NCBI RefSeq assembly: GCF_049655405.1
Contig: NZ_JBASJR010000013.1
Span: 162,968 to 226,967, forward strand
Direction: 5' to 3'
Length of the DNA: 64,000 nt
Source: Zwartia sp.
GTDB lineage: Bacteria; Pseudomonadota; Gammaproteobacteria; Burkholderiales; Burkholderiaceae_B
Shown: one piece after another, positions 26,498-64,000 of the stretch
How positions within the stretch are numbered: position 1 is the stretch's first letter
Layout: each line of letters begins with the position of its first letter
Made by a program: the position numbers and the translations under genes
The notes under the pieces: generated by a model
What the model saw: the letters and a program-made list of their open reading frames with translations, nothing else
What the model was told of the DNA's origin: nothing
Database searches by the model: none

Positions 26498-27961
26498 ATG
26501 GTTTTTTCCTCACTGGTTTTTCTTTACCTGTTTTTACCAGTCAGTCTCATTATCTACTATTTGATAGGCTCAAGGATTCGTAGCCCAAGCGAAACTGGGG
26601 CGACTTCGACTCGCGGACACGCAACAAAAGCTCAAAATCTTATTTTGATTGCTGCCAGCTTCTTTTTTTACGGCTGGGGTGAACCCGTTTGGGTCGCACT
26701 ACTTGTCTTGAGCTCTTGGGTTGGATGGTTGGTCGGCATCTGGGTCGAACAAGCAAAAACAACGACAGGTAAAAAAATTGCTGTGTTTTTTGCTGTTCTT
26801 TCAAATCTTTGTTTATTGGCCACCTTTAAATATAGCGACTTTATTGTCGAAAACATTAACTATGCCTTTGTCACTGGTCTGAATAACCCTGGCTTTGCTC
26901 TACCGATCGGCATTTCTTTCTATACCTTCCAGATTCTTTCTTATGTTGTGGATGTTTATCGTGGTGAGGTGAGGGCACAGCGTCGCTTCCTGGATTTTCT
27001 GTTGTATGTGAGCCTTTTTCATCAGCTCGTGGCGGGTCCAATTGTTCGTTACGTCCACATCGCGAACGAAATTAACAACAGAATCCATACCTGGAGTGAC
27101 TTTAGCCAAGGGCTGCATCGCGTATGCGTGGGCTTGTTTAAAAAGGTGTTTATCGCGAACGTTGCCGGTGAATGGGCGCAACGTACCTTAGGCAGTGACT
27201 TATCAACCCTGTCGACTGCGGATGCCTGGCTGGGTCTCGCTATGTTTACGATTCAAATTTATTTTGATTTTTCCGCTTACTCGGACATGGCGATTGGCTT
27301 GGGCATGATGTTCGGCTTTCATTACCGGGAAAACTTTAACTATCCCTACATCGCAAAATCAGTCACAGACTTTTGGCGTCGCTGGCATATTTCACTCGGG
27401 ACCTTTTTTAGAGACTATGTTTATATCCCGCTCGGTGGAAACAAAAGTTGGGCCTTACGTAATTTATTCATTGTCTGGGCGTTAACTGGTTTTTGGCATG
27501 GCGCAAGCTGGAACTTTATGCTCTGGGGACTCTATTTTGGAGTCTGGATTGCGCTAGAAAGACTGTTTATTGAACGCCTATTAAATGCACTACCTATTGC
27601 AATCAGTCATTTGTACTTGATGATGATTGTGACGCTTGGCTGGGCGCTCTTTTACTTTACGGACTTGTCGCGCTTAATGGCATTTTTTCAAATACTCTTT
27701 GGAACAAGCCAAACTCCGACAATCGGAATTTCTACGCTTGATGATCTGGCTTCACACGCTGTTTGGATACTGATTGCTATTTTATGGTGCATGCCCGTTG
27801 GTGATTGGCTACAAAAGCATTTTCGCTGGTGTCGCTTTAATCAATGGTCAGCATCTGCACAAACGCTGACGTTACTGATGACTGATAGTTTTCTACTGTT
27901 GAGCTCAACGGCCTTGTTGGTCGGGCAAAGTTACAACCCTTTTCTTTATTTCCGCTTTTAG
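26498..27961 (+). CDS. MBOAT-family membrane O-acyltransferase (AlgI/PatA/DltB-like)
   Basis: Polytopic, 487 aa, with the MBOAT catalytic-His block FWRRWHISLGTFFRDYVYIPLGGN. Confidence 0.88.
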   Translation: MVFSSLVFLYLFLPVSLIIYYLIGSRIRSPSETGATSTRGHATKAQNLILIAASFFFYGWGEPVWVALLVLSSWVGWLVGIWVEQAKTTTGKKIAVFFAVLSNLCLLATFKYSDFIVENINYAFVTGLNNPGFALPIGISFYTFQILSYVVDVYRGEVRAQRRFLDFLLYVSLFHQLVAGPIVRYVHIANEINNRIHTWSDFSQGLHRVCVGLFKKVFIANVAGEWAQRTLGSDLSTLSTADAWLGLAMFTIQIYFDFSAYSDMAIGLGMMFGFHYRENFNYPYIAKSVTDFWRRWHISLGTFFRDYVYIPLGGNKSWALRNLFIVWALTGFWHGASWNFMLWGLYFGVWIALERLFIERLLNALPIAISHLYLMMIVTLGWALFYFTDLSRLMAFFQILFGTSQTPTIGISTLDDLASHAVWILIAILWCMPVGDWLQKHFRWCRFNQWSASAQTLTLLMTDSFLLLSSTALLVGQSYNPFLYFRF

Positions 27962-27963
27962 TT

Positions 27964-29772
27964 ATGACAAATCGCAGCGATCACGCCACGACATCACGCT
28001 CGACTCATCACGCATTTCATGCGCTGATGGTGATTGGACTCATCAGCGTATTTGGCGTTTTGTTTGCGCTGACCTTGCGACTCAATCAATCTGTCTCCGA
28101 ACTTGAAAATCGTCGCCTCGCCAACTGGCCGACCTTATCATCACAAACGCTTTTAGACGGCTCTTATTCGAGAGATATTGAAAAATACGTCGCAGACCAT
28201 TTTCCAGGCAGACGCTGGTTGACTGAAGCAGCATTTGCTATTCGTACTTACCGTGGAGTTCAGCTTGGCGATCGCGTCATTCAGTTCAAAGGTGCTGAAA
28301 CAGGTTTTGAAGATGTTAGTAAGTGGGCAAGTGCCACTGAAGATCCGTCCCCCGATGTACCGACTCAAACGCATGACACGAATGATGTTGCTGAATCTGA
28401 GGCGCCAGATCAACCAGCGAACACTGAACTTATCGTTGTCAACACACCCATCTCGCATGAACAAACTATCATCCCCAACATCTCAAATGTGGGGTCTGAC
28501 AAAGAATTAACCGTTGATCCAGTCTCAGAAAATGAAAAAAAAGAAGAGACGGAAACGAAGATGACTCCCCCAATGAACCTTCCATTAGAGACCCCTACGG
28601 ATTCTATTAAACCCTCCATTGAAGCACCTGAGGTCATCGCTTCAGTTGCTCCGCCCACGTCAATCGACTCTGCACCACCAAAACTCATCATTCCTCAGCC
28701 CACCAAGCCTATTGTCGTCGCACCTAAGCCCCCAGAAGCAAAGCAGTCAAGTCCCGTGGAGGCTACGCAGGCTAAGCCCTTGAATGTAGTAGGTGGAGTT
28801 TTATTGCATGAGGGACAAGCGCTATTTATGTTTCAAGGAACAGACCGCGGTGCACAAGGCTATGCGAATGCTGTCAACACCTGGGTGGAGCTCGTTGCAA
28901 AAAAACGTCCTGGCATGACATCGACTGTAGTTGTGACTCCGACAAGCAGTCATTTTTATCTGCCACCTGCAGCGCGCGCTAAAACAACTTCAGAACCCAA
29001 AAATCTAGCGGCGATGCGCGCAGCGTTACTACCTGAAGTGCGTTTTGCAGATGTCGTAACGGAAATGGAAGGTCATCAAGACGAAGCGCTTTTTTTTAAA
29101 TCAGACCATCACTGGACGGGGCTTGGCGCTTATTATGCCTATCGAGCCTGGGCGCGTGCCAATGGAGTGACGCCATTAGAGTTATCCGCCTTTAGTAAAC
29201 GCTCAGTTCCAGGCGTTGCTGGATCCTTTTGGAGTTTGACACAAGCGCCGGAGTTAAGAAATGCCGACAAGGAATCTTATTACTACGTTCCTACAACTGT
29301 GACCTTCGATGGCACGCAATATGCCGGTCCCCAACAGAAAACACCGATGCCTCAGCCCTTTTTCGCTGAAAAGAGCAGGGGTTATATCGTTTTCTTAGGT
29401 GGCGACATCCCTTTACTGGTTTCGAATACAAGTGCTGGAACAGGTCGTACGGCCTTAGTCGTGAAAAACTCTTATGGCAATGCTTTCGCTCCATATCTGC
29501 TTCCGCATTTTGATCGTGTTGTCGTGCTGGATTATCGTTACGTTTCTCGGAACATTCAGGACATCGTAGATACGTTCGGGGTGACTGACCTTGTTTTTGT
29601 CAACGCCACCATTACGGCTAACTCAGGCGCGCACCAGGAAAGAATGCGCCAAGTTGCGCGAGGCAGTTCAACGGCTTGGCTCACGGAAGCTGAAAAACGT
29701 CGTCTCAAGCAGCAAGAGGATGCCGCGGGAAAAACGCAAGCGTCTGCTGCAGTCAGTGATAAAGCACAATAA
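27964..29772 (+). CDS. DHHW-family (AlgJ/AlgX-like SGNH-fold) periplasmic O-acyltransferase with long low-complexity spacer
   Basis: N-terminal TM anchor (ALMVIGLISVFGVLFALTL) and the literal DHHW motif (FFKSDHHWTGLGAYYAY, 29104-29115). Starts 2 nt after the MBOAT stop. About 160 aa of Pro/Thr/Glu/Ser-rich sequence sits between anchor-proximal region and catalytic domain. Confidence 0.7.
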   Translation: MTNRSDHATTSRSTHHAFHALMVIGLISVFGVLFALTLRLNQSVSELENRRLANWPTLSSQTLLDGSYSRDIEKYVADHFPGRRWLTEAAFAIRTYRGVQLGDRVIQFKGAETGFEDVSKWASATEDPSPDVPTQTHDTNDVAESEAPDQPANTELIVVNTPISHEQTIIPNISNVGSDKELTVDPVSENEKKEETETKMTPPMNLPLETPTDSIKPSIEAPEVIASVAPPTSIDSAPPKLIIPQPTKPIVVAPKPPEAKQSSPVEATQAKPLNVVGGVLLHEGQALFMFQGTDRGAQGYANAVNTWVELVAKKRPGMTSTVVVTPTSSHFYLPPAARAKTTSEPKNLAAMRAALLPEVRFADVVTEMEGHQDEALFFKSDHHWTGLGAYYAYRAWARANGVTPLELSAFSKRSVPGVAGSFWSLTQAPELRNADKESYYYVPTTVTFDGTQYAGPQQKTPMPQPFFAEKSRGYIVFLGGDIPLLVSNTSAGTGRTALVVKNSYGNAFAPYLLPHFDRVVVLDYRYVSRNIQDIVDTFGVTDLVFVNATITANSGAHQERMRQVARGSSTAWLTEAEKRRLKQQEDAAGKTQASAAVSDKAQ

Positions 29773-29821
29773 GTTTAGTCAGCTACTCTACACATCAGTT
29801 TCGATTTATCAGGAGAATGTT

Positions 29822-31282
29822 ATGTCCCCGTCAAAGTCTTCAGTCGCTGTTAGACACACTCAGCGCGGGAGAGCCGTTCTCGTCTGTCTGCTCTCAAGCC
29901 TAAGTTTTACAATGGCATCCTGTGCACAAACAGATCGCACCTCACCACATACCACTCAACAATCGTCAACGACTGAATCACAGGCCCAAACGCCCAAGCT
30001 GCCTTCGGGCCCCAGACCGACTAACGGACTGCTTTTGGTGCCCGGAGATCGAATTGTTTGGCTAGGGGACAGCATTACTGCAGCTCATACTTATGGCCGC
30101 TATGTTGAAGCATTTTTCCTATTAAGAAGACCAGACTTGAACCTGACGTTTATCAATGCTGGAATAGGGGGGCATTCAGCGCTCAATGGTTTGAACAGAC
30201 TTGACTCAGATGTGTTGTCACAACGGCCTTCCGTTGTTGTCGTGAACTTTGGCATGAATGATGCAGCGTATCCAGCAGGAAGTCCGCATGCCGCATTTAT
30301 TCAAAATATTGATGCCACGATTGAGCGCCTCAGACAAGGTGGCGTTCAGCGCATTATTTGGGTTGAACCTACGCCCACTCACACCGCAGGTATTCCTGCT
30401 CAAGCCAAACTCTGGGATCGCCAAAGACAACTTGAGCGTCTTGTTGCCGAAATGCGTGCACATCAGGTGAAATCAGATGTGATTAAGGTGCAATGGCAAG
30501 ACCCAATGAAACAAGCATTAAATGCAGCGGCTGCCAAGCCTGATTTCAAACTGATTCCAGACCGTATTCATCCGAGCGCAGCAGGTCATGCTGTGATGGC
30601 CGCAGAGTTCTTACGTCAGATCGGTGCAGATCTTGAGCCGAGTGTGATTCAAAGCACGGTTAGTCAATCCACGATGGAGACAGAGTTTCGTCAAGTGGGG
30701 GCTGACGCCAAAAAGATCCAAAAAATTCGCAGTACTGTCGATCGCAATACGGGTGCCACTGTCAATGTTGCCAGTGCATTGCCCCCCGTTCCAATGCTCT
30801 ATAACGCTGAACAAAGCAAACTCCTTGGTAACAAATCACTAGAAGCTCTTAGGAGCTTGACTTGGCGTATACAAGGACTCGAGCAGAACACCCGCTACGC
30901 TGTGCAGATCGATGGTTTCAATGTGGGCCGCTTCTCAGGCGCTGAACTCGCAAGAGGGGTTGATGTGATGCCGTCAGATGCCAATCGAAAAACACTTTCA
31001 GTTTTGGCAAAGCGCGAACTTGAAGCTTGTACACTTAAAGACCAATATGTCTTTTTAAATGACTTTGAATGTCTGTTTGATATGCTCTATCAAAAAGATC
31101 AGTTACGTATGCTGATGAGACCTGATAGGGTAAGAGATCTACCCAATTTCGGCACGGTCCGTCTGACAACCTACACAAACTTTACCGATAGTTGGATCGA
31201 CTCTGCAAGTCGTGCCATTACCGAGCGAGCATTGCAAATGCGCAGCACACCTCACACGCTATCGCTTGTTCCGGTGCGTTGA
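29822..31282 (+). CDS. SGNH/GDSL hydrolase-family lipoprotein with about 200-aa C-terminal extension
   Basis: Lipobox-like signal (LSSLSFTMASC). SGNH blocks I (IVWLGDSITAA), III (VVNFGMNDA) and V (DRIHPSAAGH). AGGAGA SD before ATG 29822; the ORF-track start 29591 overlaps the previous gene. Confidence 0.7.
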   Translation: MSPSKSSVAVRHTQRGRAVLVCLLSSLSFTMASCAQTDRTSPHTTQQSSTTESQAQTPKLPSGPRPTNGLLLVPGDRIVWLGDSITAAHTYGRYVEAFFLLRRPDLNLTFINAGIGGHSALNGLNRLDSDVLSQRPSVVVVNFGMNDAAYPAGSPHAAFIQNIDATIERLRQGGVQRIIWVEPTPTHTAGIPAQAKLWDRQRQLERLVAEMRAHQVKSDVIKVQWQDPMKQALNAAAAKPDFKLIPDRIHPSAAGHAVMAAEFLRQIGADLEPSVIQSTVSQSTMETEFRQVGADAKKIQKIRSTVDRNTGATVNVASALPPVPMLYNAEQSKLLGNKSLEALRSLTWRIQGLEQNTRYAVQIDGFNVGRFSGAELARGVDVMPSDANRKTLSVLAKRELEACTLKDQYVFLNDFECLFDMLYQKDQLRMLMRPDRVRDLPNFGTVRLTTYTNFTDSWIDSASRAITERALQMRSTPHTLSLVPVR

Positions 31283-52672: not shown

Positions 52673-54232
52673 CTATTTTTTACAGGTCGAAGGACCCAAG
52701 GCGTCCTGAGCTGCCCGATTGATGCCAGCATTGAGCTCGGCAATGTTAGAAACGCGATACATCTTGCCGCCCGTCGCCTCTGCCACACACGCGGCGGCAC
52801 CCGAGCCACCGATATCGACCACGTTAATTTTAAGATGCGGTTTTTGCCTGGCGAGATTTCGGGCGACCGCACAAGGATCTCCGCCGCACGACTCGCCACC
52901 GTCAGAGACCAATAAAATCGTACTTTCTTTATTTACCCCATCCACTAACCTGCCCGCTTCCAAAATGCCATCGGCAAGCGGTGTACCTTGGTGGGGACGT
53001 AAGCTTCTCAACTGATTGATCATCTGTCCTCGCTGCGAGGGTGCGAATCGGCCCATATTACGGGCGGCAGGACAGGCGTCGACCACGACCAGCCCTGTCC
53101 CCACGTCAGAGGGCAAGCGCTGTAAAACATCCACTGTCGCTTGTTGAGCGGTCACCATACGAGTCGGCTGACGGGTCAAATACTCAAGTTTTTGTCGGTC
53201 TTGGCCGCTCATAAACTGCATCGCCAGAGGCCCACGATTTAAATTTGCAAACACCCATTGCTCGTCCTGACGCGAAGCATTGATATTGACCATCATTGAT
53301 CCAGAAGAATCAAACACCACCACCATTTCAGGTGCGAGAGCAGCAGGACGATCTTCTGGGCAAAGATTTTTAGCCGTTGTAATGGTGGCAGGAGGCTTGA
53401 CTACCGGCTTAGGCTTTGGAGGTGGTGGTGGCACAGGTTTAGGTGGCTTGACAGGCTCTGGCACAGGAATAGGTTCAGGTTCCGGTTCAGGTGTTGGCTC
53501 AGGCTCGGAGACAGGCTCAGGATCCACCACGGGCAAGTCAGCTGGCTTGGGCACATGAATGGGCTCTGGTGGCTCAGGTACCACAACAGGCTGAGGTGGT
53601 TCGGGCTCAGGCGTCACCACAGCAACAGGCTCAGTCACAGGCACTTGAATAGGCAGTTCAACTTTATTAAAGGGTGAACGCGGACACCAAAACCACCATA
53701 GTAAAAATACAAACAATAATAAAAGCAATGCACCCAGAAGCCACTTCCAAAGCTGACTGGACGCAATCGGTGATGCGATGAGTGGAACAACCGGTGCCGC
53801 TAAAATTTTTCGGGGAGATTCGGCCGCAATCGCTCGATTCCAATACAGCAAAACTGGCTGCCCACCGACTGAGTAAATCGCATCAATTGGAGGATCTGCA
53901 CTCGCATCGCGCAACAGACTTAATAGAGATGGATCATGAGTAGGCTGAGCAGCATATGATTCTGCGAACTGTCCAATCGCTCGCAAGCGCTCGAATAACG
54001 CGATGCGCAAATGCAAAGCAGCGGCTTCAGGCAACTCCGCGTATGGAATGGGCTGGCCCGCAAAAGATGTGTGCCACTGCACCGTACCATCTGTTGACAC
54101 GCGAGGCGCGGCATACAGTGCCACCACACTTGGTGGCACAGAAGCACCTAATACCCGTATAAAAGAATCATGCAGCGTCTCCAAGCCTTGAACGGACGTG
54201 AAAGCAAAGCGACGCTGCACAATTCGATTCAT
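52673..54232 (-). CDS. Bitopic membrane protein: cytoplasmic N-domain, TM, TonB-like EP/KP proline rod, periplasmic vWA domain
   Basis: TM LWKWLLGALLLLLFVFLLWWFWC. About 88-aa Pro-rich rod (PEPEPPQP...EPEPTPEPEPEPIPVPEPVKPPKPVPPPPPKPKPVVKPP). vWA with intact MIDAS (VVVFDSSGSM; ILLVSDGGE). ATG 54232 lies 4 nt after the upstream stop with GGAG SD. Confidence 0.75.
   Translation of the reverse strand: MNRIVQRRFAFTSVQGLETLHDSFIRVLGASVPPSVVALYAAPRVSTDGTVQWHTSFAGQPIPYAELPEAAALHLRIALFERLRAIGQFAESYAAQPTHDPSLLSLLRDASADPPIDAIYSVGGQPVLLYWNRAIAAESPRKILAAPVVPLIASPIASSQLWKWLLGALLLLLFVFLLWWFWCPRSPFNKVELPIQVPVTEPVAVVTPEPEPPQPVVVPEPPEPIHVPKPADLPVVDPEPVSEPEPTPEPEPEPIPVPEPVKPPKPVPPPPPKPKPVVKPPATITTAKNLCPEDRPAALAPEMVVVFDSSGSMMVNINASRQDEQWVFANLNRGPLAMQFMSGQDRQKLEYLTRQPTRMVTAQQATVDVLQRLPSDVGTGLVVVDACPAARNMGRFAPSQRGQMINQLRSLRPHQGTPLADGILEAGRLVDGVNKESTILLVSDGGESCGGDPCAVARNLARQKPHLKINVVDIGGSGAAACVAEATGGKMYRVSNIAELNAGINRAAQDALGPSTCKK
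53390..53653 (-). repeat. Degenerate short tandem repeats encoding the EP/KP proline rod
   Basis: Plus-strand text shows reiterated GGYTCAGG/GGTGG units (ggttcaggttccggttcaggtgttggctcaggctcgg...). These translate on the minus strand to (E/K/V)-P repeats, including PPPPP. Confidence 0.6.
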
Positions 54233-54236
54233 TGAC

Positions 54237-54752
54237 CTACTCCAGAATGGCAGATTGCTTGCGCAGTTTTTCCACCTCAACCTCAACCGCTTGAATGCGC
54301 GTCTGTAACTCTTGAGCGTTGGTCGTACCAGAAGTTACAGGCGTTTTTTGTAGTGCATCCAAACGTGCACGCGCAACCTTGATCTGCTCAGTCAAGGCTT
54401 GGTTGGAAGGATTGCTTGCCTGGACGGATCGAAGATAAGCACCGACGCTGCGCGTGATGTTTGTCACGTCAGCACGACGCTTGACCACATCAGCTGCGAC
54501 TAAAGAATTTTTCTTTTCCATGTCAGCGACTGCCTGACGCAACAAGACATTATTTTGTCTTTCAGCTGCAAGCTGTGCTTCCTTGTCCTGCGCACGTGCA
54601 TCGTATGAACCAGAAAAATCGCAGTTCATTTTGGTCAATAAACCTGCGTCTCGCATCGCTTTAGGATCGCACCCAGCCTTGTCCATCGTACAGGCCGCCA
54701 ACAAGGTCGTGAGCCCAAGAACAGTGATTACTTTAGAAACTTGTTTCATCAT
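54237..54752 (-). CDS. Coiled-coil lipoprotein
   Basis: Lipobox LLAAC after a typical signal peptide. The rest is heptad-like and charged (AQLAAERQNNVLLRQAVADMEKKN...RIQAVEVEVEKLRKQ). No family recognised. Confidence 0.6.
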   Translation of the reverse strand: MMKQVSKVITVLGLTTLLAACTMDKAGCDPKAMRDAGLLTKMNCDFSGSYDARAQDKEAQLAAERQNNVLLRQAVADMEKKNSLVAADVVKRRADVTNITRSVGAYLRSVQASNPSNQALTEQIKVARARLDALQKTPVTSGTTNAQELQTRIQAVEVEVEKLRKQSAILE

Positions 54753-54759
54753 TTCACCA

Positions 54760-55467
54760 TTAACCAGTTACTTTAATCGAAGAGGCCAAACCATAAGCCA
54801 CATCAAGTTGACCTTTCATCGCATCGCGTGTCCGGCTGAGCTGATCAAGCTGACCTTGCAATTGACGCACATCTGCACCGACTGCCCGCTCCTTTTCAAT
54901 GATGTCCTGATACTCATCCACACGGGTATTGATGTTGGCTAACTCCTTTTCAAGGAATGCCTTGTTTGCATTGATACGGTCAAGCTCAGCCTTGGCCTTT
55001 TTTTGGTCAACCTGCTTGGCAGCAACTTGTGCATTCAGCGTCTTTAAGGTTCGCTGATTTTCTTGCAATACAACATTGATATTTTTCATACGGGTCTGCA
55101 ATTTTTGATTGTCAGCCTGCACATCCTGAATGAACGAATTAATCCGCTGCTCGTTATTGGCATATTTTGCACGACGTTGATCAAGCAAATAATTGGCGCC
55201 AGCACCGACACCACAACCTGCAACAGCAGCAATCGCCATACAGGCAGCCTTATTACCAGAGTTGCTCAGCGCACAAGCCAGTACACCCGTCAAAGCACCC
55301 GCCGCACAAGCTTGTGCACCTGACTTACTAAAAAACTTCGCTTCTTCGCCCTCTGTCAGGCGCGGATCAACATCACCTCCACCCATGTTTTGGCAACCTG
55401 CCAAGAACAAACAACTGACTAATGCAATAAATGCTGAGCGTAATTTAAGGCTTGATTGTGAAAACAC
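54760..55467 (-). CDS. Lipoprotein with glycine/alanine-zipper segment and long coiled coil
   Basis: Lipobox FLAGC. Gly/Ala/Cys-rich zipper (GAQACAAGALTGVLACALS...AIAAVAGCGVGAGANY), then about 130 aa of coiled coil. GTG start preceded by GGAG SD, 11 nt after the upstream stop. Confidence 0.6.
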   Translation of the reverse strand: MFSQSSLKLRSAFIALVSCLFLAGCQNMGGGDVDPRLTEGEEAKFFSKSGAQACAAGALTGVLACALSNSGNKAACMAIAAVAGCGVGAGANYLLDQRRAKYANNEQRINSFIQDVQADNQKLQTRMKNINVVLQENQRTLKTLNAQVAAKQVDQKKAKAELDRINANKAFLEKELANINTRVDEYQDIIEKERAVGADVRQLQGQLDQLSRTRDAMKGQLDVAYGLASSIKVTG

Positions 55468-55478
55468 GTGACGACTCC

Positions 55479-57086
55479 TTAGTTAACTGAGACTTTTTTA
55501 CATGCGGATAGCCACTCAGACTGAGTGATCTTCCTATCTTTCAGATACTGACCTAAATGTGACCAATACGTATCGACATATGCATCGAGGTTGCTGCTTT
55601 TTCTTGCCAATAACTGCTGACGCTTAATGGCAACCTCTGGCGACACCATCGGAGCGGTATAGATGGCACCTGCCTCGACAATACTGTCCGAATAGAGACC
55701 CAAGGCAAGCTCCTGTGCTACTTTGCGAGTATCCACATTTCGCTTGATCAGCGAACAACGTGCTTGGTCTTCTTTTGCGAGAGTCTCAACCTTGGAACAC
55801 CCTTCGTCATAATTCTTTTTAAGCCCGTCATAAAAACGACCTTCTCGATTCAACAAAACGCACATAAAAGCGCCCTGTTGGAGCGCAGAACGAATTGCAA
55901 TCCCTCGTTGCTCATCACGTGTTTGGTTGCTACTTCGCAACTCAGTGCGCAATGCTTCAAGTTCCTTTTTTAGCTTGTCGTCTTTTAAACCTGACATCAG
56001 ATTGCTAAGACGCTCGACTGTGCTCGTCGCGGCTGGGCCTTGCGCATTCGCACTTGCATTGGGTGCATTCTCACGCGTACCGAGCTCAGCCCACCCCTGC
56101 TCAATTTCCTTACTACGATTTGCCGATGTTAAGGAGGGTGCCACCACGACAAGCCTAAATCCTGAGGTCTTCTGTTTGTTGGGTGCAGCCTCTCGGTAAT
56201 AGGTTTGCTCTTGGCGCCAAGACGTACGAATGTCACTCTCAGGCGTCATATAGTTGGCACCTCGAACGATAAAGCCACCCGCTTGCCCGTGAAATCGATC
56301 AAGTTTGTTTAGACGAAACGACTCAAACATCATTTCATCTGCATTGCCCAACATATCATGCAAACCTAGAGGATTAGGTTGTAGCAAACCAGCCAGTTGA
56401 AGTTTGCCGTTTGCAGATTGTGATCCTGCAAACCAAACATATTTATTCATCCCGTCGGGCATCGGAAACGTTGCTTCACGAAACTCGGTGCTCGATACGC
56501 TGTTGCCACCACGTGCTGCAAACTCCCACTCCACTTCAGTCGGCAAGCGCACAAACCCGGCAACATTGTCCTCAACAGGCAAACTCTTGAGTGCATTCGC
56601 ACGCAACCAGATGTTGAGTGTGTCACCAAATTGCATCGCTTCAAACCAACTCAGCTCAACTTTAGGCAGCATCAGCTTGACTGAAGGTCTTGGGCAAGTC
56701 TCCTGCATCACCGATTGGTATTGAAGCTGGGTGACCTCATACTTTGCCATCAAATAGTAGCGACCAGGATTGGGCTTGTCAGTTGTAAAGCTACCGGCAA
56801 TGTGAGCAGGATGCGCTTGTTCGAGATAACGCAATGCTGCACCCTCAGAACCGAGCGTCACGCCAAAATCTTCGAGCGGCTTACTGAGAGGAACATGCAC
56901 ACGACGAAAAACCATGGAGCCCTCGCAAGGCATGGGCAAGACCACATCGTCCTCCGTTGGCTTTGGATTAAAAAAACGTGCTTCCCAAGGGGCAGAAACA
57001 GCCAACGCGCTACACAGCGACAAGCCAAGAACACAGGACAAATTAAATAGGCTTCTAAAGATCACGCAAACTCTCCGCTGGTTCAA
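55479..57086 (-). CDS. Exported FGE-sulfatase (SUMF1)-fold protein lacking the catalytic Cys pair, with about 215-aa C-terminal extension (TagR-like)
   Basis: Signal peptide. FGE-fold blocks YLMAKYEVTQLQY, RLPTEVEWEFAARGG, NPLGLHDMLGNADEMM, FIVRGANY, SGFRLVV. No Cys in the region where FGE active-site cysteines lie. Start is TTG 57086 or GTG 57065; both overlap the permease gene. Confidence 0.8.
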   Translation of the reverse strand: MNQRRVCVIFRSLFNLSCVLGLSLCSALAVSAPWEARFFNPKPTEDDVVLPMPCEGSMVFRRVHVPLSKPLEDFGVTLGSEGAALRYLEQAHPAHIAGSFTTDKPNPGRYYLMAKYEVTQLQYQSVMQETCPRPSVKLMLPKVELSWFEAMQFGDTLNIWLRANALKSLPVEDNVAGFVRLPTEVEWEFAARGGNSVSSTEFREATFPMPDGMNKYVWFAGSQSANGKLQLAGLLQPNPLGLHDMLGNADEMMFESFRLNKLDRFHGQAGGFIVRGANYMTPESDIRTSWRQEQTYYREAAPNKQKTSGFRLVVVAPSLTSANRSKEIEQGWAELGTRENAPNASANAQGPAATSTVERLSNLMSGLKDDKLKKELEALRTELRSSNQTRDEQRGIAIRSALQQGAFMCVLLNREGRFYDGLKKNYDEGCSKVETLAKEDQARCSLIKRNVDTRKVAQELALGLYSDSIVEAGAIYTAPMVSPEVAIKRQQLLARKSSNLDAYVDTYWSHLGQYLKDRKITQSEWLSACKKVSVN

Positions 57087-58296
57087 TTTTTGTCACCACA
57101 ACACCTCCTACACCCGCCACGACTAGGGCCAACATTAGAGCGCCTGCAAGCGCCATCACAAAATGTATGGGCTCAAGTCGGCAGACGAAACGATCCGCTT
57201 TCATATATTCGCCCAGCATTTGATTAAACAATTGACTCCCCAACAAATACATCAAGCAGCCCACGGTAAACCCCGTCACCGTCAACACAGCGGACTGCAT
57301 CACCACATACCCTTGCATGGCCAGTCGTCCATAACCCATCAATCTCAATAGCGCAAGATCCTTACGCTTACGGTCAATATTGGCCATGAATGCACCGATC
57401 AGCGATGCGGCACAGCCCAGCACTGCAATCCAGGCAATGACGCCAAAAACAATTCCCAGCACCTTATCAATGGACTGTACGGATTTAATTTCAGCCAGTC
57501 GACTAGACGTCTCGATGCCCTCCTTCAACAGACGGTTTGCCAAAGCCTCAACATTCTCTATTTTGTCGGCATATATTCTCGCTCGAGCAAAATGGGTGCG
57601 AGGCTGAAGGGCCGAACCTGTTTCTACACCAGAGCCGGGAACGTAGAAGCCATCACGAAAGTCTTCCACTTCAATGAGAAGAGGCAATGTCAAAAAAACA
57701 GCGGGGCGAGAAAAAGACTCGGGGGGCAAAATAGCTAAAACACGCACCTCAATCTGCGCACGCTCTGTGCGACTTTCGTGCAAACGGGTCACTCTAAGTT
57801 GAATCCTCTCTCCTGGCTTAACCGCGAGCCGAGAGGCGGCCGAAGACGACAGTACGACATCGTTCCTACCTTGAGGAATTGAGATCCCATCCAGGACAGG
57901 ATCGTTGATAGCTGTTGGAATCAACTCGACATTTTCTGCAAAACGTCGACTATCCACAAAGAGATCTGCAATCGTATTGAGAGACCGCGTCAAAGGCATC
58001 ACAAAACCCACGCCCTCTAAGTTGCGCATTTTTTCAAACCAAGTGGGCTCAAGCTTTGCACTTGCGAGCATGCGAATTTCAAGATTACGAGGATCAGAAA
58101 GCAACTCCGCACGCATCTGACTCACAATTCCAAACTTCAACCCAAATAACAACAATAAAGGCGCCACAACAGCCACAATCGAGGCCATAATACAAATCGA
58201 AACTTTGCGATCGTGCAGCAGGTCACTTAAACCAAGCGACAACAGCACCTTGAGTGGAGGTGCGGAAAAAGTTGAAGACTGTTTAGAGGCGCTCAT
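57055..58296 (-). CDS. ABC transporter permease, FtsX/MacB-type (4 TM with large periplasmic domain; TagS-like)
   Basis: TM1, about 230-aa periplasmic domain, then three TMs with RKRKDLALLRLMG and C-terminal EPAESLRDL, typical of the MacB/LolCE/FtsX family. 14-nt overlap with the ATPase gene. Confidence 0.88.
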   Translation of the reverse strand: MSASKQSSTFSAPPLKVLLSLGLSDLLHDRKVSICIMASIVAVVAPLLLLFGLKFGIVSQMRAELLSDPRNLEIRMLASAKLEPTWFEKMRNLEGVGFVMPLTRSLNTIADLFVDSRRFAENVELIPTAINDPVLDGISIPQGRNDVVLSSSAASRLAVKPGERIQLRVTRLHESRTERAQIEVRVLAILPPESFSRPAVFLTLPLLIEVEDFRDGFYVPGSGVETGSALQPRTHFARARIYADKIENVEALANRLLKEGIETSSRLAEIKSVQSIDKVLGIVFGVIAWIAVLGCAASLIGAFMANIDRKRKDLALLRLMGYGRLAMQGYVVMQSAVLTVTGFTVGCLMYLLGSQLFNQMLGEYMKADRFVCRLEPIHFVMALAGALMLALVVAGVGGVVVTKIEPAESLRDL

Positions 58297-58999
58297 TAAA
58301 AACAGTCCTTCGTTGTGCGCTCACAGTTCCTACAATCTGCCTGATCCCTACATCCTCCACTAAAGACCACTCGTGCGTCACGATCAATGCACCAATACTA
58401 AATTCACGGGCAATCTCGACGATTAATGTGAACAACTCCTTGGCTAATATTGGATCAAGCGCGGCAGTCGGTTCATCCGCCAACAACAAGCCGGGACGAT
58501 GCGCAATGGAGCGAACAAAAGAAACGCGCTGACGCTCTCCAATTGACAGTTGCGCAGGCATGCGCCCGAGTAACGGCTCTAAACGCAATCGCTCAATGAC
58601 TTGTTCGAGAAAGGAATCCCTACCCTGCAGTCCAACCAGTTTCCTTGGTAATTCAATGTTTTGCTTGACGTTTAAAAACGGGAGTAAGCCACCACTTTGT
58701 GGCACAAAACCCAGGTAATGCTGACGTAATCTGGCCCAACGCGTCTCACGTTCTGAAGCACTCAGGTGCAAATCCCCCGTCAAGTCCACAGCACCCAAAC
58801 GATGATGCGTAACTGACTTTGGCTCCAGTATTAAACCAAGGGCCTCTAGCAAGGTGCTTTTCCCACACCCGCTGGGTCCAACAATGGCCGCAACATCTCC
58901 AGCATTGAGTCGACATGCAGATAGGGCCACTGCATAGGACTCACCTTCACGTCCACGCGAGACTTCCATATCGCTCACATCGAGAATAGGCTCAGTCAC
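58283..58999 (-). CDS. ABC transporter ATP-binding protein (MacB/LolD-like; TagT-like)
   Basis: Walker A GPSGCGKST, Q-loop, signature LSIGERQR, Walker B LLLADEPTAALD, H-loop THE. GTG start 1 nt after the upstream stop. Confidence 0.93.
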   Translation of the reverse strand: MTEPILDVSDMEVSRGREGESYAVALSACRLNAGDVAAIVGPSGCGKSTLLEALGLILEPKSVTHHRLGAVDLTGDLHLSASERETRWARLRQHYLGFVPQSGGLLPFLNVKQNIELPRKLVGLQGRDSFLEQVIERLRLEPLLGRMPAQLSIGERQRVSFVRSIAHRPGLLLADEPTAALDPILAKELFTLIVEIAREFSIGALIVTHEWSLVEDVGIRQIVGTVSAQRRTVFNERL

Positions 59000-59000
59000 G

Positions 59001-60995
59001 CTAAGGTAAAGACTCTAAAGGCACTGGATAAACAGCTTCACTTGGATCGCTTCCTTTAGCAAGAGAAACCCAAGAACCTGTATCAGCATTAAAACTCTGA
59101 TACTGCCTCAGCTTTGTGTTGAGGCGCATCATGAATTGGGTCTGCGCCGCAACAGACATCGCTTTCCAGCCCTCTTCATCCAAACCCATCACATCGCTTT
59201 TGTAAGGCAAACCCTCGAGGTATTCACCCAACAAACCCATCTGACCAAGTTTTTGAGCATTACCCTGACGCAAATCATTAGGATCGCGTCCCATGGTCGC
59301 CGCGACAGAGCGCAACCGGTCAAACATGTCGGTAGGCGACACCAGCGAAGCATTCGCCGCCTCAACAATTTGCGTCACGACTGAACTCAGGTCGCTCAGC
59401 TGAGATTTTGTCAACAGCACACGTACTTCAGTCGTTGGAATATTTTGTTTGACCAGATCACGGTCACTAATCCATGCTTTAAAAAATGGTGGCGCTTTAG
59501 TGTTGGTTGCACCACCAAGATAAGCAAGCTGCATGGCACGACCGAGCAACGCCGAATCACGTGCAATCGCAGCAGCTGTCGATCCAGCTGGAGCAGGAGG
59601 CGTTGCAGGCGTAGATTGGGTCGCTGTCAATGCACTGCCCGCCACCACCTCCCCCATGGAGGCTTGCTTGATTTGTGTCACGAGTGACTGCCCGAGACTT
59701 TCAATCGTTTCACCAAAAACGTTCACACGTCCTGCGTCAACCGAGTAGTAAAGGGGACGATTGGCAATCGAATTAAAGGCAAGCGTATCGTATTGACGTT
59801 GAGCAGACTGGTGATTCTTGGCTCCCTCTGGTGTTTTGAGGTGCATGACATAAAGCGCCACGCCTTTCTCTTTCGCCAACTCACGCACAGCTTGTGCATC
59901 TAACCCTGTTGCTGAAAGCGGATCGTTGGCGTCCAGCGCACCGGCATCCGTCACAAGAACAATGTAGCGTGCACCAAACTCATTCCAATTGATCTTTTCT
60001 AAGGCTTCTTTGACGCCTGCATAAGGATCTTCATCAAACTTCGGTGTTGAGATTTTCGTTGCTTTTAAATCTTTAATTTTTTCAAAGAAATCTGCACCAT
60101 TTTTGACTTGTGTGGGATCCGCATAAATGCGTGTGTTGTATTCAATCGCCGGTACGGCTGAGAGTGCGGAACGAAATGCCACCAAACCAAATTTGACCTT
60201 ATCGTCAATTTTTTCCTTTTCCATACGCGCATAGATATTTTTCATGACTGCGCGCATCCGCTCAATATAGGGATCCATCGACAAGGTCGAGTCCATCACG
60301 AACACAACGCCTGCACTGAAAGCCTTGATTGAGCTTTGAACAGCTTGCGGACTTACAGCAGGATTGGCATTGGGATCCTGACGACTCACCGAAGCCACTT
60401 GAAGCAAGCGAACATTAAAACCCGCATCACTCATGACCTCTTCAGCTTGCAAAATTGGCAGCAAGTAAAAGTTTTTTCGGAAGTCTACGTATAGCTCAGG
60501 CTCACGTGCAAGGACTTGCGGATTACGTCCGACCTTAGCCATGCTATCCAAGATAGGGGCATAGGTTAAGGCAGGATCGGCAGCGTCGATAATTTTTTCG
60601 ATACTCTCACGATCTTTAAAAAAGAGTGCAAGTGTGCGATTGGCTGGATTGGTAAAGGCCAAAGACATCTGCATTTTCCATTCAACAGAACAAGCAGCAT
60701 CTAACCAACCGATTTTCTTACCAACCGTGTCAACGCCAACTTCAAGCCATGTTTTACCTGCGCTTTCCGTGCGCTGATAAACGTAGTAACGACTGAAGGC
60801 TTCTTGTGCAGCCCCGCTCTGATCACCGGGCTTGGCATAGAGTTTGCAGGTCGGTGTGGTCAGCACACGCTGATAAAGCGTTTTTTTTCCTTCCTGCAAG
60901 AGTGGCTTATTGTTTGCCGCTTGACCGTAGCTCAGCGGCGTCAACAATACACTCGACACACAGAAGAAAAATGACAAAATATTTTTGATCTGCAT
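59001..60995 (-). CDS. Secreted vWA-domain protein (664 aa) with unassigned N- and C-terminal domains
   Basis: Signal peptide (FCVSSVLLTPLSYGQA). Beta-rich N-domain. vWA with MIDAS DSTLS (VVFVMDSTLSM, 60279-60293) and YIVLVTDAG. About 240-aa C-terminal region. Confidence 0.75.
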   Translation of the reverse strand: MQIKNILSFFFCVSSVLLTPLSYGQAANNKPLLQEGKKTLYQRVLTTPTCKLYAKPGDQSGAAQEAFSRYYVYQRTESAGKTWLEVGVDTVGKKIGWLDAACSVEWKMQMSLAFTNPANRTLALFFKDRESIEKIIDAADPALTYAPILDSMAKVGRNPQVLAREPELYVDFRKNFYLLPILQAEEVMSDAGFNVRLLQVASVSRQDPNANPAVSPQAVQSSIKAFSAGVVFVMDSTLSMDPYIERMRAVMKNIYARMEKEKIDDKVKFGLVAFRSALSAVPAIEYNTRIYADPTQVKNGADFFEKIKDLKATKISTPKFDEDPYAGVKEALEKINWNEFGARYIVLVTDAGALDANDPLSATGLDAQAVRELAKEKGVALYVMHLKTPEGAKNHQSAQRQYDTLAFNSIANRPLYYSVDAGRVNVFGETIESLGQSLVTQIKQASMGEVVAGSALTATQSTPATPPAPAGSTAAAIARDSALLGRAMQLAYLGGATNTKAPPFFKAWISDRDLVKQNIPTTEVRVLLTKSQLSDLSSVVTQIVEAANASLVSPTDMFDRLRSVAATMGRDPNDLRQGNAQKLGQMGLLGEYLEGLPYKSDVMGLDEEGWKAMSVAAQTQFMMRLNTKLRQYQSFNADTGSWVSLAKGSDPSEAVYPVPLESLP

Positions 60996-60996
60996 C

Positions 60997-62001
60997 TTAT
61001 TTCCTTAGGGCTTCAAGACGCGTTTTCGCATCAGTATTTTCGGGCTCTTTGGACAGCACCAACTCATACCAGTAGATGGCCGTGTCTTTATCCGCAGCAC
61101 TCAAACAGCCAGCCACGAAAGTCGCAGGATCGAACTCGCGGGCATACGCAAGCGCCACCTTGGCATCGCCAGACTGTCCTTTAAATGCGTAGAGACGCTG
61201 AACAACATCACAACGTTTAGCTTCTTTGGCTGTCGCAATAACAGTTAAAACTTGATTCGAGTCAGGATTGGTTTTTAGGCAAGCCTGGATAAACAGCAAA
61301 TCATCCTTTGTGGCAGTCAATGCTTCCGTACTGCAGGGAGCAGGCTCTGCAGGTGCCACTGGAGGACTCGTGAGTGCAGGATTCACTGTGCTTGATGTGA
61401 TAACAGGCTGAGCAGTTGAGCCAAAATATTTCCAGGCAAAATAGCCTGCGACCACTAATATCAATAAAGCAATCAGCGCGACCCACAAGCCAATTTTTGA
61501 TTGTTTCTGACTAGGCTGAATAATTGGTTCTGGCGCAGGCTCAGCGACCTCTGGCAATGGCGACACAAGACTATCCGCGGCCGCCACCCTCTGCGCATCC
61601 GCAACATGGTTAACAGGATCCGCACTCTGACCCGCAGCGCGAGAAGACAACACGCCATCGCGCAAACGCAGAACGCCTATTGCTTCCTCGGAGCCTATGC
61701 GCACCTGCAGCTGATAGGTCATCTGAGGATTTTCAACAAGCGGGTCAACCAAGCGCGCATCAAGTGCCAACACCACTGAAGTATCAATAAGCTCTTCGGA
61801 CAAACTCACCTGATGCCACGTCTGCGTGGCAGTCCATTGTCCGTGCTCACCTAAATATCGGTGATCTTGATTGCGCTGCACACACACCTCAGCACCTGCA
61901 CCAAACTCTAGACTCTCACGATCCCAGCTTGTCAGAACCAATACTCCCACACCCGGGCGACCACTGGCAGCTGGTTTTAATTCAGGTCTAATCTTTTTCA
62001 T
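60997..62001 (-). CDS. Bitopic membrane protein: cytoplasmic beta-rich N-domain, TM, periplasmic 4-Cys helical (Sel1/TPR-like) domain
   Basis: TM IGLWVALIALLILVVAGYFAWKYF near residues 170-193. C-terminal helical repeats (VALAYAREFDP...AIYWYELVLSKEPENTDAKTRLEAL) with four Cys. ATG shares one base with the upstream stop (TAATG). Confidence 0.55.
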   Translation of the reverse strand: MKKIRPELKPAASGRPGVGVLVLTSWDRESLEFGAGAEVCVQRNQDHRYLGEHGQWTATQTWHQVSLSEELIDTSVVLALDARLVDPLVENPQMTYQLQVRIGSEEAIGVLRLRDGVLSSRAAGQSADPVNHVADAQRVAAADSLVSPLPEVAEPAPEPIIQPSQKQSKIGLWVALIALLILVVAGYFAWKYFGSTAQPVITSSTVNPALTSPPVAPAEPAPCSTEALTATKDDLLFIQACLKTNPDSNQVLTVIATAKEAKRCDVVQRLYAFKGQSGDAKVALAYAREFDPATFVAGCLSAADKDTAIYWYELVLSKEPENTDAKTRLEALRK

Positions 62002-64000
62002 TATTCAGGATTCACTTTTGCTGCATTTAATTTAGCGATGATGGCACCTAGCTCAGCATTTTGTTCGGGCTTGATTTCACGACCTCCATCATGGCCTGCG
62101 TTGTCTAAAACCAATTGTGCAAAGCCTACGAGCCAATCACCCATGTAAATACGCGTATGGTCAATCGCCTCGTTTCCTATGGCTGGCAGTTTTCCTCTTG
62201 GAATCAAAACAGGATGCTCAAAGAGCTTATGTCCTGAATGAATGCGACTGTCTGGGCGCTCAGCAAGAGGCACATTGATGTAGCCTAACCACGCCACAAA
62301 GTCACCCAACAGAGTTTTTGCAGCCATCACTTGCCGATCGACCAGGCGTTCCCGTTTTGTGCCGACCTGATCTGCTCCGCTTAACGCTCCCAACAGCTGT
62401 TTTTGCACATCCAGGCGCGTGGCAGCCGTGATCATTTCGTCGCACAGCATCTCAGTGGCCTCTTTTGACAAGCCAAAATAACTCAGCATCGTCGTTTCGC
62501 TTGGCATGTTTCGTAAGTGCTCAATCCACTCTCGCAAAACAGTCTGAGCAAAGCGCGCATCACTACTTAACGAAGATTTTGTTTGCATGCTCGAGGCAGT
62601 GACAGATTTTTTCTGGTCACCAAAAATATCGAGTGCATCGTCTAATCCAAAAATATCATCGCCTAGATTAAGAGCACCAGGCACGTCGATGTTTTCTGTT
62701 GACTCGGTGGGCTGAGAGGAATTTTCGGCGCCCATATACAAGCCTTGCAACACGGAATCTGGCAGTCGTAATTTTTCTTGCAACTCAGCAAGAAGCGGAA
62801 TACGCGGTTTTAAAGCCGTCACGACCTGCTGGGCAATTTTTCGCTTTGCCTCGATCTCACCCATGCCATCCTGGTGAAACCAACGACCCAGGCGATTACT
62901 CATCAAGTCATGCAGCACCGCATCCATTTGCTCAGCGATACGCTCCAACTTGACCTGACGCACAGATACTTTAGCCAGGTATTCGCTCAAACGCTCTACA
63001 CCACCATCATTGAGTGCCATCATTGCCTGCCATGCTGCTGCAGGCTCGGACACATGACTTTGAATCAACTCAGCATGACTAAAAATACGTTCCATTAAGG
63101 CCAATTGGCTCGCAGAGGAGGCATTCGCCGCCTTTTCCTGTCCGTTTTCCATTTCTAAAAACGCGACGGGCATACGTGGCTTACGGACTAAGAACGTATT
63201 ATTAAAAGCGCTACCATTGGCCCAATCTTGCATCCAGTCAAAACTGCCGAAACGCTCTAGCATCGTCATTTTGACGAGATTATTCCAAACGGTGTGCAAC
63301 ATATCCTCGTCTTTCGTGAGCGAGTCAGCAATCTTGATGTCAAACATCGTGACGGCCCAAATCAATCCAGGCAAACGCTTTGCGCGCTCTGAGGACGTCG
63401 CACCTTGAGTTTTGCGGATCCACTCAGTCAGGACGGGTCCAACCTCTGTGACATCCGACTGTTTGTGTGAGGCCGTGCACACGACCAACACATTCATTTC
63501 CTGCGTGTCGGTATAGCGTTCAAACAGATAAGCAACTTTGCCGCGCAATAACAATTGCGCCACAGGATTACCTGACTTTTCCTTGCCCTGCGCAGACGAG
63601 ATATCAACCAGATTATCCAACCCCAAACGTCCGCGATAACCCGGAAAATCAAGCAGATCGACTTCTTCAAAAATCTTTTGATGCGGGACATTAATCAGAG
63701 GAAAGATCAACTCAGCTGTCAGCGCAGCCAACTGTGCCATCGTTAAGCGCTGTGCGACACCGATTTTTCCCTCACATAACGGCAACACATCAATCGGCAA
63801 ATCTTCTGTGCGACCCAAACGTTCCAACATATCAACGTTCATGATGCTATCGGCTTGCGAAAGCGAGCCACCCGGACCTGTTGGGCGAACCACTGCCTCA
63901 ATAGGGGCGTAGACGCGCGTCGGATAGCCCAGCGCTGCCAAGGTCTGGGACAGCATCAAAAATGTTTGAGTTAAAGCTGGCGATTGACGCCACAAACAAG
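62001..64000 (-). CDS. SrfC-like putative NTPase ('putative virulence factor' family), 5' end outside window
   Basis: Frame is open to the window edge, so the TTG at 63995 is not a real start. VDLLDFPGYRGR (DxxG/Walker-B-like, 63639-63659) and NPVAQLLLRGKVAYLFERYT match what I remember of Salmonella SrfC. The P-loop is expected upstream, outside the window. Confidence 0.6.
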   Translation of the reverse strand, partial: CLWRQSPALTQTFLMLSQTLAALGYPTRVYAPIEAVVRPTGPGGSLSQADSIMNVDMLERLGRTEDLPIDVLPLCEGKIGVAQRLTMAQLAALTAELIFPLINVPHQKIFEEVDLLDFPGYRGRLGLDNLVDISSAQGKEKSGNPVAQLLLRGKVAYLFERYTDTQEMNVLVVCTASHKQSDVTEVGPVLTEWIRKTQGATSSERAKRLPGLIWAVTMFDIKIADSLTKDEDMLHTVWNNLVKMTMLERFGSFDWMQDWANGSAFNNTFLVRKPRMPVAFLEMENGQEKAANASSASQLALMERIFSHAELIQSHVSEPAAAWQAMMALNDGGVERLSEYLAKVSVRQVKLERIAEQMDAVLHDLMSNRLGRWFHQDGMGEIEAKRKIAQQVVTALKPRIPLLAELQEKLRLPDSVLQGLYMGAENSSQPTESTENIDVPGALNLGDDIFGLDDALDIFGDQKKSVTASSMQTKSSLSSDARFAQTVLREWIEHLRNMPSETTMLSYFGLSKEATEMLCDEMITAATRLDVQKQLLGALSGADQVGTKRERLVDRQVMAAKTLLGDFVAWLGYINVPLAERPDSRIHSGHKLFEHPVLIPRGKLPAIGNEAIDHTRIYMGDWLVGFAQLVLDNAGHDGGREIKPEQNAELGAIIAKLNAAKVNPE

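Follow-up and report, generated by a model that had tools for sequence, protein, structure and literature searches.

What does a domain of the von Willebrand factor A (vWA) type do at the end of a srfABC operon, tethered to the inner membrane by a spacer that resembles that of TonB? The question is raised by a 519-aa protein, here called the target, which is encoded in a 64,000-nucleotide stretch of Zwartia sp. DNA (contig NZ_JBASJR010000013.1, positions 162,968 to 226,967; hereafter the window). We found that the target is composed of an N-terminal domain with detectable homology to that of SrfA (SrfA-N), a single transmembrane (TM) helix, a Pro-rich spacer and a vWA domain with an intact metal ion-dependent adhesion site (MIDAS), and that the linkage of its gene to srf genes is conserved. 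These observations suggest that the target is probably a bitopic adaptor and a dedicated component of an extended srfABC system, linking a periplasmic sensing module to the cytoplasmic proteins SrfB and SrfC. The parts of the gene are as follows.

52673..54232, minus strand: target gene, 519 aa (SrfA-N, TM, Pro-rich spacer, vWA), last in the extended srf operon.
53831..54232, minus strand: SrfA-N-like cytoplasmic domain (residues 1-134), supported by NF040486, BLASTP, hhalign and AlphaFold2 (AF2).
53687..53761, minus strand: TM helix (residues 158-182), a hydropathy maximum and an AF2 helix with a predicted local distance difference test (pLDDT) score of 84-90.
53378..53677, minus strand: Pro-rich spacer (residues 186-285), 37% Pro, roughly 100 aa, with no predicted secondary structure and an AF2 pLDDT of 54-65.
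53453..53506, minus strand: acidic EP block EPEPTPEPEPEPIPVPEP (residues 243-260), read from the sequence.
53390..53452, minus strand: basic KP block VKPPKPVPPPPPKPKPVVKPP (residues 261-281), next to the conserved AKNLC(291)PxDRP junction.
52676..53365, minus strand: vWA domain (residues 290-519), supported by Pfam VWA_2 (26.5 bits), AF2 and Foldseek.
53297..53311, minus strand: MIDAS motif DSSGS (D308-S312), with exact position and invariant D, S and S.

The reading frame was taken to start at ATG 54232, 5 nt past the stop of the upstream gene and with a GGAG ahead of it. This start was favoured over TTG 54286 because the N-termini of all homologues read MNRI or MKRI. Public proteins 99% identical to the target exist, in addition to >200 homologues. 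In an AF2 model of the full target, built on an alignment with 53 family members (mean pLDDT 85.7), residues 1-130 formed a compact fold (pLDDT >93) and residues 290-519 a vWA fold (pLDDT about 85-97). When the vWA part was compared with the PDB by Foldseek, 221 vWA chains were matched at E<=1e-3, the best being BatB (7e-9), and Rpn10/p44-type chains were also among them. The Rossmann-like fold and the full MIDAS (DxSxS...T...D) of the vWA superfamily are both present in the target. Across the 53 family members the MIDAS residues D308, S310, S312, T417 and D444 were invariant, and so were six periplasmic Cys residues (C291, C387, C449, C454, C482 and C517), where an earlier note, made from the sequence alone, had counted four in the vWA part. 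When PDB sequences were searched, none of the queries (the vWA part, SrfB, SrfC and the N-domain profile) produced a meaningful match.

The N-domain is free of Cys, Cys residues occur only C-terminal of the TM helix, and RRR or KKRR directly precedes this helix in the homologues, so that an N-in/C-out topology is well supported. The case is thus good that the target is bitopic and resides in the inner membrane, with its vWA head in the periplasm. The earlier note's outline, a TM helix followed by an EP/KP spacer and a vWA domain with DSSGS at exactly 53297-53311, was confirmed, and its topology agrees with the AF2 helix, the Cys distribution and the RRR/KKRR residues.

The N-domain, to which the earlier note had assigned no recognisable family, was identified as SrfA-N by three comparisons. 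The NCBIfam model SrfA_fam (NF040486, positions 41-138) matched target residues 36-131 with E 5e-7. BLASTP of the SrfA encoded in the same operon against the target aligned the two N-domains (28% identity, E 2e-5), and hhalign matched a profile of 45 target-family N-domains to the N-domain of the operon SrfA over 112 columns (probability 97.9%, E 4.5e-13). Judged by these sequence comparisons, the target N-domain is homologous to SrfA-N and the target is a SrfA paralogue with a vWA head. By the curated model the target is not a SrfA family member, because it scored 29.5 bits against a cut-off of 150. The true SrfA of the operon (494 aa) scored 360 bits; it is encoded on L001 (GCA_049652265.1), a contig that contains the window's sequence, extends past it and shows the full operon. 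The N-domain of p334, a 334-aa bitopic protein of the same operon, was considered as a third copy of SrfA-N and ruled out, since hhalign found no match; this comparison doubles as a negative control.

Residues P43, G59, L67, L107, G124, P126 and W131 are nearly invariant in the target N-domain, whereas the family alignment contained no invariant Lys or Asp and no conserved catalytic-type K/D. The isolated N-domain was modelled by AF2 with a pLDDT of 92.5 and a predicted TM-score (pTM) of 0.84. Foldseek of this model against the PDB returned nothing significant (best E 0.32, TM-score 0.36-0.43), and about 40 of the top 50 of these non-significant matches were RIO, CDK, TTK or APH kinases. Searching PDB sequences with the N-domain profile gave no kinase sequence signal, and Pfam, run on the target and on 41 relatives, found no Pkinase match. 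On the modelled fold, a kinase-like nature of SrfA-N is suggestive only. A 2026 preprint describes SrfA-N as a degenerate, non-catalytic protein-kinase-like scaffold, and its AF3 model presents SrfA-N as a platform for SrfB and then SrfC (10.64898/2026.09.18.752743). In domain searches of the kind that the earlier note had proposed, hhalign found the SrfA-N family and the Foldseek matches were non-significant, nearly all of them kinase-like.

The target is the last gene of an 11-gene operon, complete on L001, in the order srfA-srfB-srfC-p334-vWA664-ABC ATPase-FtsX permease-FGE-fold protein-lipoprotein 235-lipoprotein 171-target, within which stops and starts overlap; here ABC stands for ATP-binding cassette and FGE for formylglycine-generating enzyme. 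Unrelated metabolic genes lie downstream of the target. The operon genes upstream of the target in the window are as follows; srfB and srfA are just outside.

54237..54752, minus strand: 171-aa lipoprotein with lipobox LAAC and a coiled coil, directly upstream of the target gene in many loci.
54760..55467, minus strand: 235-aa lipoprotein, TagQ-like, with lipobox LAGC, a glycine zipper and a coiled coil (NCBIfam VI_TagQ, E 2.8e-8).
55479..57065, minus strand: FGE-sulfatase-fold secreted protein, 528 aa, TagR class, COG1262-type (Pfam FGE-sulfatase, 1.4e-29).
57055..58296, minus strand: FtsX/MacB-type permease, TagS/LolC class, by family models.
58283..58999, minus strand: ABC ATPase, LolD-like, TagT class, by family models.
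59001..60995, minus strand: vWA664, 664 aa, with a signal peptide and a second vWA domain (MIDAS DSTLS), conserved in srf loci.
60997..62001, minus strand: p334, a 334-aa bitopic protein with an N-domain unrelated to SrfA-N.
62001..64000, minus strand: SrfC (PF10139; Pfam 9.5e-211), cut by the window end.

The solved sequences nearest to the FGE protein are non-enzymatic FGE folds, namely the PorK/GldK ring protein and T. denticola Vp1 (variable protein), and the protein therefore fits a binding rather than a catalytic role. At its C-terminus, roughly 200 aa form a helical, Cys-rich extension. In p334, Pro-rich stretches lie on both sides of the TM helix, the C-terminal domain is helical and contains Cys, and the N-domain has no detectable family. 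PADLOC gave zero defence-system matches for the target, SrfA, SrfB, SrfC, vWA664, p334 and the FGE protein. In one freshwater metatranscriptome (run X25), a single 258-nt contig matched the TM/spacer part of the target gene (window 53510-53767) with about 98% identity, and two contigs fell on vWA664 (60169-60644). These contigs hint weakly at transcription and do not suffice to claim expression; they may also stem from DNA carry-over.

To what extent is this arrangement shared by other genomes? A word-indexed search returned 229 clusters (90% identity), nearly all of 480-600 aa and with the same plan, and an exhaustive search with the N-domain profile returned 1877 representative clusters (50% identity) at E<=1e-3 and 811 at E<=1e-10. 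Among the best 150 representative clusters, the head was vWA in 84, SrfA-C in 11 and other or divergent in 26, while 29 were fragments; the novelty that the earlier note had seen in this architecture was not sustained by the survey. Pfam on 41 atypical or long members identified vWA variants, including two of the integrin-beta type, and one trypsin-like head, with a kinase domain in none. In a scan of species-representative genomes, the family occurred in metagenome-assembled genomes (MAGs) of Burkholderiaceae and Alcaligenaceae and in Piscinibacter, Pseudorhodoferax, Azomonas, Azorhizophilus and Pseudomonas, and also in Xenorhabdus, Acerihabitans, Ketobacter, Methylomonas, Chromatiaceae, Rhodospirillales and other Alphaproteobacteria.

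Linkage was assessed by tblastn of the operon proteins against the family loci from the genome scan. Of 37 informative loci, which came from Alpha-, Beta- and Gammaproteobacteria, about 33 had srf genes and/or the ABC-FtsX-FGE cassette beside the family gene, and none of the operon genes was found by tblastn near 31 control vWA loci from outside the family. The linkage withstands rearrangement, since at least four gene orders were observed: the family gene closed the operon, lay directly upstream of srfA, diverged from srfA or converged with the cassette. On plasmid pENTE01 of Enterobacter sp. 638, a homologue annotated 'VWA domain-containing protein' stands directly upstream of a gene for a 'SrfA family protein', and the Xenorhabdus homologue is likewise directly upstream of srfA.

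The srf accessory cassette was present in at least 115 Klebsiella plasmid records. The slot directly upstream of srfA in K. pneumoniae pKPN-065 (NZ_CP015026.1; L092:2613-3725) encodes a 370-aa 'tellurite resistance domain protein', which has a TM helix and an N-domain that matches the SrfA-N profile (hhalign probability 98.7%, E 2.9e-16). Its head is not a vWA domain and has no Pfam match, indicating that the conserved element is a second SrfA-N anchor with an exchangeable head. The Klebsiella orthologue of the 235-aa lipoprotein scored 55 bits (E 5.6e-15) on VI_TagQ, also below the equivalog cut-off. On plasmid p.A of Cereibacter sphaeroides (CP031752.1; L091), the order is srfB-srfC-p334-vWA-ABC-permease-FGE, and the lipoproteins and the SrfA-N-vWA gene are absent. 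A review of type VI secretion systems (T6SSs) lists TagR, TagS and TagT in 'Rhodobacter' (PMC13584744), a listing that might refer to the srf-linked cassette rather than to a T6SS one.

Several observations weigh against the adaptor reading. Four loci (L021, L035, L036 and L051) carry a family member without srf or cassette genes within 10 kb. Because a single MAG contains both L036 and the srf-linked L026, some genomes have an unlinked copy in addition to the linked one. Conversely, some srf loci, such as those of Cereibacter, lack the target gene, and the Salmonella srf locus is without a gene of this type according to the preprint (10.64898/2026.09.18.752743); the target gene thus counts as an accessory and not as a core component. 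Statistics do not support a kinase-like SrfA-N (Foldseek E 0.32; no PDB sequence signal), and the VI_TagQ match of the window's lipoprotein is far under the model cut-off (33 bits vs 300).

The spacer was compared directly with that of E. coli K-12 TonB (b1252). Both blocks of the target together (residues 243-281) read EPEPTPEPEPEPIPVPEPVKPPKPVPPPPPKPKPVVKPP, and the TonB counterpart reads EPVVEPEPEPEPIPEPPKEAPVVIEKPKPKPKPKPKPVKKV. A local alignment covers both blocks, and the polarity is alike, acidic near the membrane and basic away from it. Charge segregation was significant by permutation in the target (p = 0.022) and in TonB (p = 0.012), which bears out the EP-then-KP resemblance proposed in the earlier note. 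As far as sequence can tell, the likeness is compositional; Pfam on the isolated spacer, at E<=10, found neither TonB nor any other match. The spacer is not a DNA-level array, because Tandem Repeats Finder reported just a 6-nt x 3.7 repeat under it, beneath the EP block.

A polyproline II (PPII) helix rises about 0.31 nm per residue, and an 88-residue PPII segment could therefore reach about 27 nm, enough to cross the periplasm. Across 174 family proteins, however, the segment from TM helix to vWA domain ranged from 6 to 483 aa (median near 115), and in many lineages it was not proline-rich and consisted of helical, Cys-containing repeats. A fixed distance between head and membrane, as the earlier note had pictured, is thus not a property of the family, and the TonB-like rod is lineage-specific. 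In the subfamily of the window the spacer measures 105-140 aa, and a PPKPxPxxKPP block by the invariant AKNLC291PxDRP junction is conserved. The membrane-proximal half was more acidic than the distal half in 46 of 64 representatives and in 129 of the 174 proteins overall. In some lineages, represented by P0182, P0200, P0167 and P0203, the spacer is 150-480 aa of tandem helical repeats of about 50 aa and is not proline-rich; each repeat has conserved Cys pairs, e.g. ...GDCDKLKLFDRSL...LDACRPPPDPFADL... We regard the TonB-like spacer as lineage-specific filler, not as a defining feature.

How might such a protein work? In the model that we propose, we infer which partners are bound, in which direction information flows and any signalling. 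The target, as a SrfA paralogue in which vWA replaces the lipocalin-like periplasmic head, would place SrfA-N in the cytoplasm and its TM helix in the inner membrane, and a flexible or extended Pro-rich spacer would carry the vWA head, stabilised by disulfides, across the periplasm. The MIDAS site may then bind a periplasmic or outer-membrane partner encoded by the operon, with the TagR-like FGE-fold protein, vWA664 and the TagQ-like lipoproteins as candidates. The TagTS/Lol-like ABC module would place the lipoproteins, or might be a mechanotransmitter, a role that has been proposed for TagTS. In the cytoplasm, SrfB/SrfC is the likelier partner, reached through SrfA-N, a step that we also infer: the non-catalytic SrfA-N would dock or cluster SrfB/SrfC, in parallel to or together with SrfA. 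If SrfA-N scaffolds SrfB/SrfC in this manner, the target would thereby take the position of PpkA, and protein-protein scaffolding would replace phosphorylation.

Part of the same evidence could be explained by a static structure. The target, SrfA, p334, the secreted vWA protein, the FGE protein and the lipoproteins would then form a fixed assembly spanning the envelope, analogous to the FGE-fold PorK rings of the type IX secretion system, while the Lol-like ABC module just places lipoproteins and SrfB/SrfC are anchored at the membrane. This explanation gains from the structural, PorK/GldK-type nature of the nearest solved relatives of the FGE protein, from the three bitopic proteins and two outer-membrane-type lipoproteins of the operon, and from the common role of vWA domains in holding assemblies together, exemplified by the BatB, Rpn10 and p44 matches. 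Nevertheless, a spacer of 6-483 aa is hard to square with a single fixed architecture and the parallel to TagQRST-PpkA favours regulation, and we consider a static assembly unlikely. The earlier note had instead envisaged an autonomous receptor of novel architecture, in which a rigid TonB-type EP/KP rod holds the vWA domain at a fixed distance and binding is relayed to an orphan cytoplasmic domain. The close resemblance of the EP-then-KP block to that of E. coli TonB, with the same polarity, is in keeping with such a rod, as are the more acidic proximal half in 46 of 64 representatives and a spacer whose lack of predicted secondary structure is compatible with extended PPII. But the N-domain is no orphan, being SrfA-N, the conserved operon speaks against autonomy, the architecture is common, and spacer length and chemistry are not conserved. 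This explanation is largely refuted, and we give it little credence.

It is similarly improbable, and slightly more so, that the target is an exported toxin or adhesin part of a 'SrfABC toxin', carried for instance in outer-inner membrane vesicles and binding host or prey surfaces through its vWA domain. SrfABC of Xenorhabdus stockiae has been reported as cytotoxic and insecticidal (PMC6950479), vesicle export of SrfA was proposed in the preprint (10.64898/2026.09.18.752743), and adhesins often contain vWA domains, the LapA and pilin matches being examples. Against export, the host is a free-living freshwater or groundwater Burkholderiaceae bacterium, the target lacks a signal peptide and is stably anchored as a bitopic protein, the window showed no secretion system genes, and the vesicle model was argued by exclusion alone. 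A TonB-like energy transducer, in which an ExbBD-type motor couples the proton-motive force to the vWA head, has just the proline spacer likeness and the N-in single TM helix in its favour. The target TM helix contains neither His nor an SHLS-type motif, whereas the fetched TonB has HGAVV; a TonB_C domain and a TonB Pfam match are both missing; exbB/exbD-type genes are absent from the operon; and TonB has almost no cytoplasmic domain, whereas that of the target is a folded 130 aa. Without TonB_C, a TM His or an ExbBD partner, energy transduction of this kind was rejected as very improbable.

The adaptor reading can be extended to the origin of the system, although we hold this extension to be doubtful: SrfA-N may be a degenerate remnant of a PpkA-type kinase, and the srf accessory cassette a sister of the TagQRST-PpkA pathway. 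If so, SrfABC would be not a secreted toxin but a cytoplasmic nucleoside triphosphatase machine that is switched on at envelope damage or cell contact. Two paralogous bitopic adaptors would activate it, SrfA with a lipocalin head and the target with a vWA head, and the heads (vWA, integrin-beta-like vWA, the non-vWA 'tellurite resistance domain' and trypsin-like) would be interchangeable sensor modules.

Many Proteobacteria have srfABC, among them Klebsiella, Enterobacter, Xenorhabdus, Pasteurellaceae and Pseudomonas, and for 25 years it has borne the label 'virulence factor' without a mechanism. That srf loci carry two SrfA-N-anchored bitopic proteins with differing periplasmic heads, together with accessory genes that mirror an envelope-damage sensing pathway, leads to a testable model in which MIDAS ligand binding in the periplasm is coupled to SrfB/SrfC. 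The target thus provides a useful handle on the SrfABC enigma, and the result corrects the generic annotation 'VWA domain-containing protein'. The target family is widespread and functionally uncharacterised, its architecture is common, and its gene neighbourhood had been described before (2013, 2026). The earlier note had said that its view would fall if the N-domain proved to be a degenerate kinase or another known signalling domain already described with vWA, or the architecture common and already characterised. Largely this is what we found; functional characterisation is the exception.

The remaining large open reading frames of the window are housekeeping genes (purF, glnD, rseP, bamA, ppsA, a photolyase and a polysaccharide O-acetylation trio). 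The trio, at 26498-31282 on the plus strand, consists of adjacent genes for an MBOAT acyltransferase, a DHHW/AlgX-like protein and a GDSL hydrolase, an AlgI/AlgJ/AlgX-style set for polysaccharide O-acetylation. No T6SS, pppA or fha genes were seen in the window.

Among known systems, TonB (E. coli b1252) shares with the target the N-in single TM helix and the (EP)n-then-(KP)n spacer with its acidic-to-basic polarity. The target differs from the TonB family in lacking the TonB C-terminal domain, the TM His signature and an ExbBD partner; its spacer is about three times longer, and the resemblance is not kept across the target family. BatA and BatB of the Bacteroides aerotolerance operon, which are membrane-tethered, were the best structural matches of the vWA head (3ibs and 4jdu; E about 7e-9), but the target lacks the MoxR ATPase and Bat operon context, its N-domain differs and identity is just 16-17%.

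SrfA itself (NF040486; srfABC of Salmonella, Xenorhabdus and Haemophilus) shares a homologous N-domain and an operon with the target. Both proteins combine a cytoplasmic SrfA-N, a single TM helix, a long low-complexity periplasmic linker and a Cys-rich periplasmic head. In the operon SrfA, the TM helix is W/L-rich, the linker of about 180 aa is rich in Pro, Thr and Gly, and the head contains the motifs FLDGSW, TGKP and CSDGG, which match the SrfA-C motifs given in the September 2026 preprint (10.64898/2026.09.18.752743). The target has SrfA-N and the single N-in/C-out TM helix alongside srfB and srfC, but a full-length match including the SrfA-C head is lacking: its head is a vWA domain with a MIDAS, whereas SrfA keeps the lipocalin-like SrfA-C (FLxGxW/TGKP/CxDGS).

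The domain plan can also be likened to that of PpkA (TagE, PA0074), which belongs with TagQRST to the threonine phosphorylation pathway of the P. aeruginosa H1-T6SS. PpkA, a kinase, is likewise bitopic in the inner membrane and exposes a vWA sensor domain to the periplasm, where TagR engages it (PMC3224232). The target has the single TM helix and the periplasmic vWA domain, but neither a catalytic Ser/Thr kinase domain nor, in the window, linkage to pppA, fha or T6SS core genes, and the output of its system is presumably SrfB/SrfC, unlike that of PpkA. The resemblance extends to TagQRST, since in this one operon the TagR class is represented by an FGE-fold periplasmic protein, the TagS class by an FtsX permease and the TagT class by a LolD-like ATPase, next to a TagQ-like outer-membrane lipoprotein with a glycine zipper; a 2026 review equates TagR with COG1262, TagS with COG4591 and TagT with COG1136 (PMC13584744). 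Three candidates for genuine T6SS counterparts were rejected: Pseudosulfitobacter vWA matches from a plasmid tblastn lay in an unrelated gene context, a Cereibacter FGE match taken for a T6SS TagR locus proved to be another srf cassette, and the nearest non-family vWA reading frames from the genome scan, tried as PpkA, had no kinase motifs. Neighbourhoods of srfABC with tagQRST/ppkA-like genes were labelled as such in 2013 (PMC3608642), and Lol-like ABC, vWA and SUMF1 genes are described as flanking srfABC (10.64898/2026.09.18.752743); in the searchable literature we did not find it stated that the protein in the PpkA position carries SrfA-N and hence is a SrfA paralogue. The earlier note's comparison with PpkA therefore fits the Tag-like operon context, although the neighbourhood had been published in 2013. 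By analogy, the target would stand in the position of PpkA with SrfA-N replacing the kinase, and a 'PpkA-like receptor lacking the kinase' is a good functional analogy for it.

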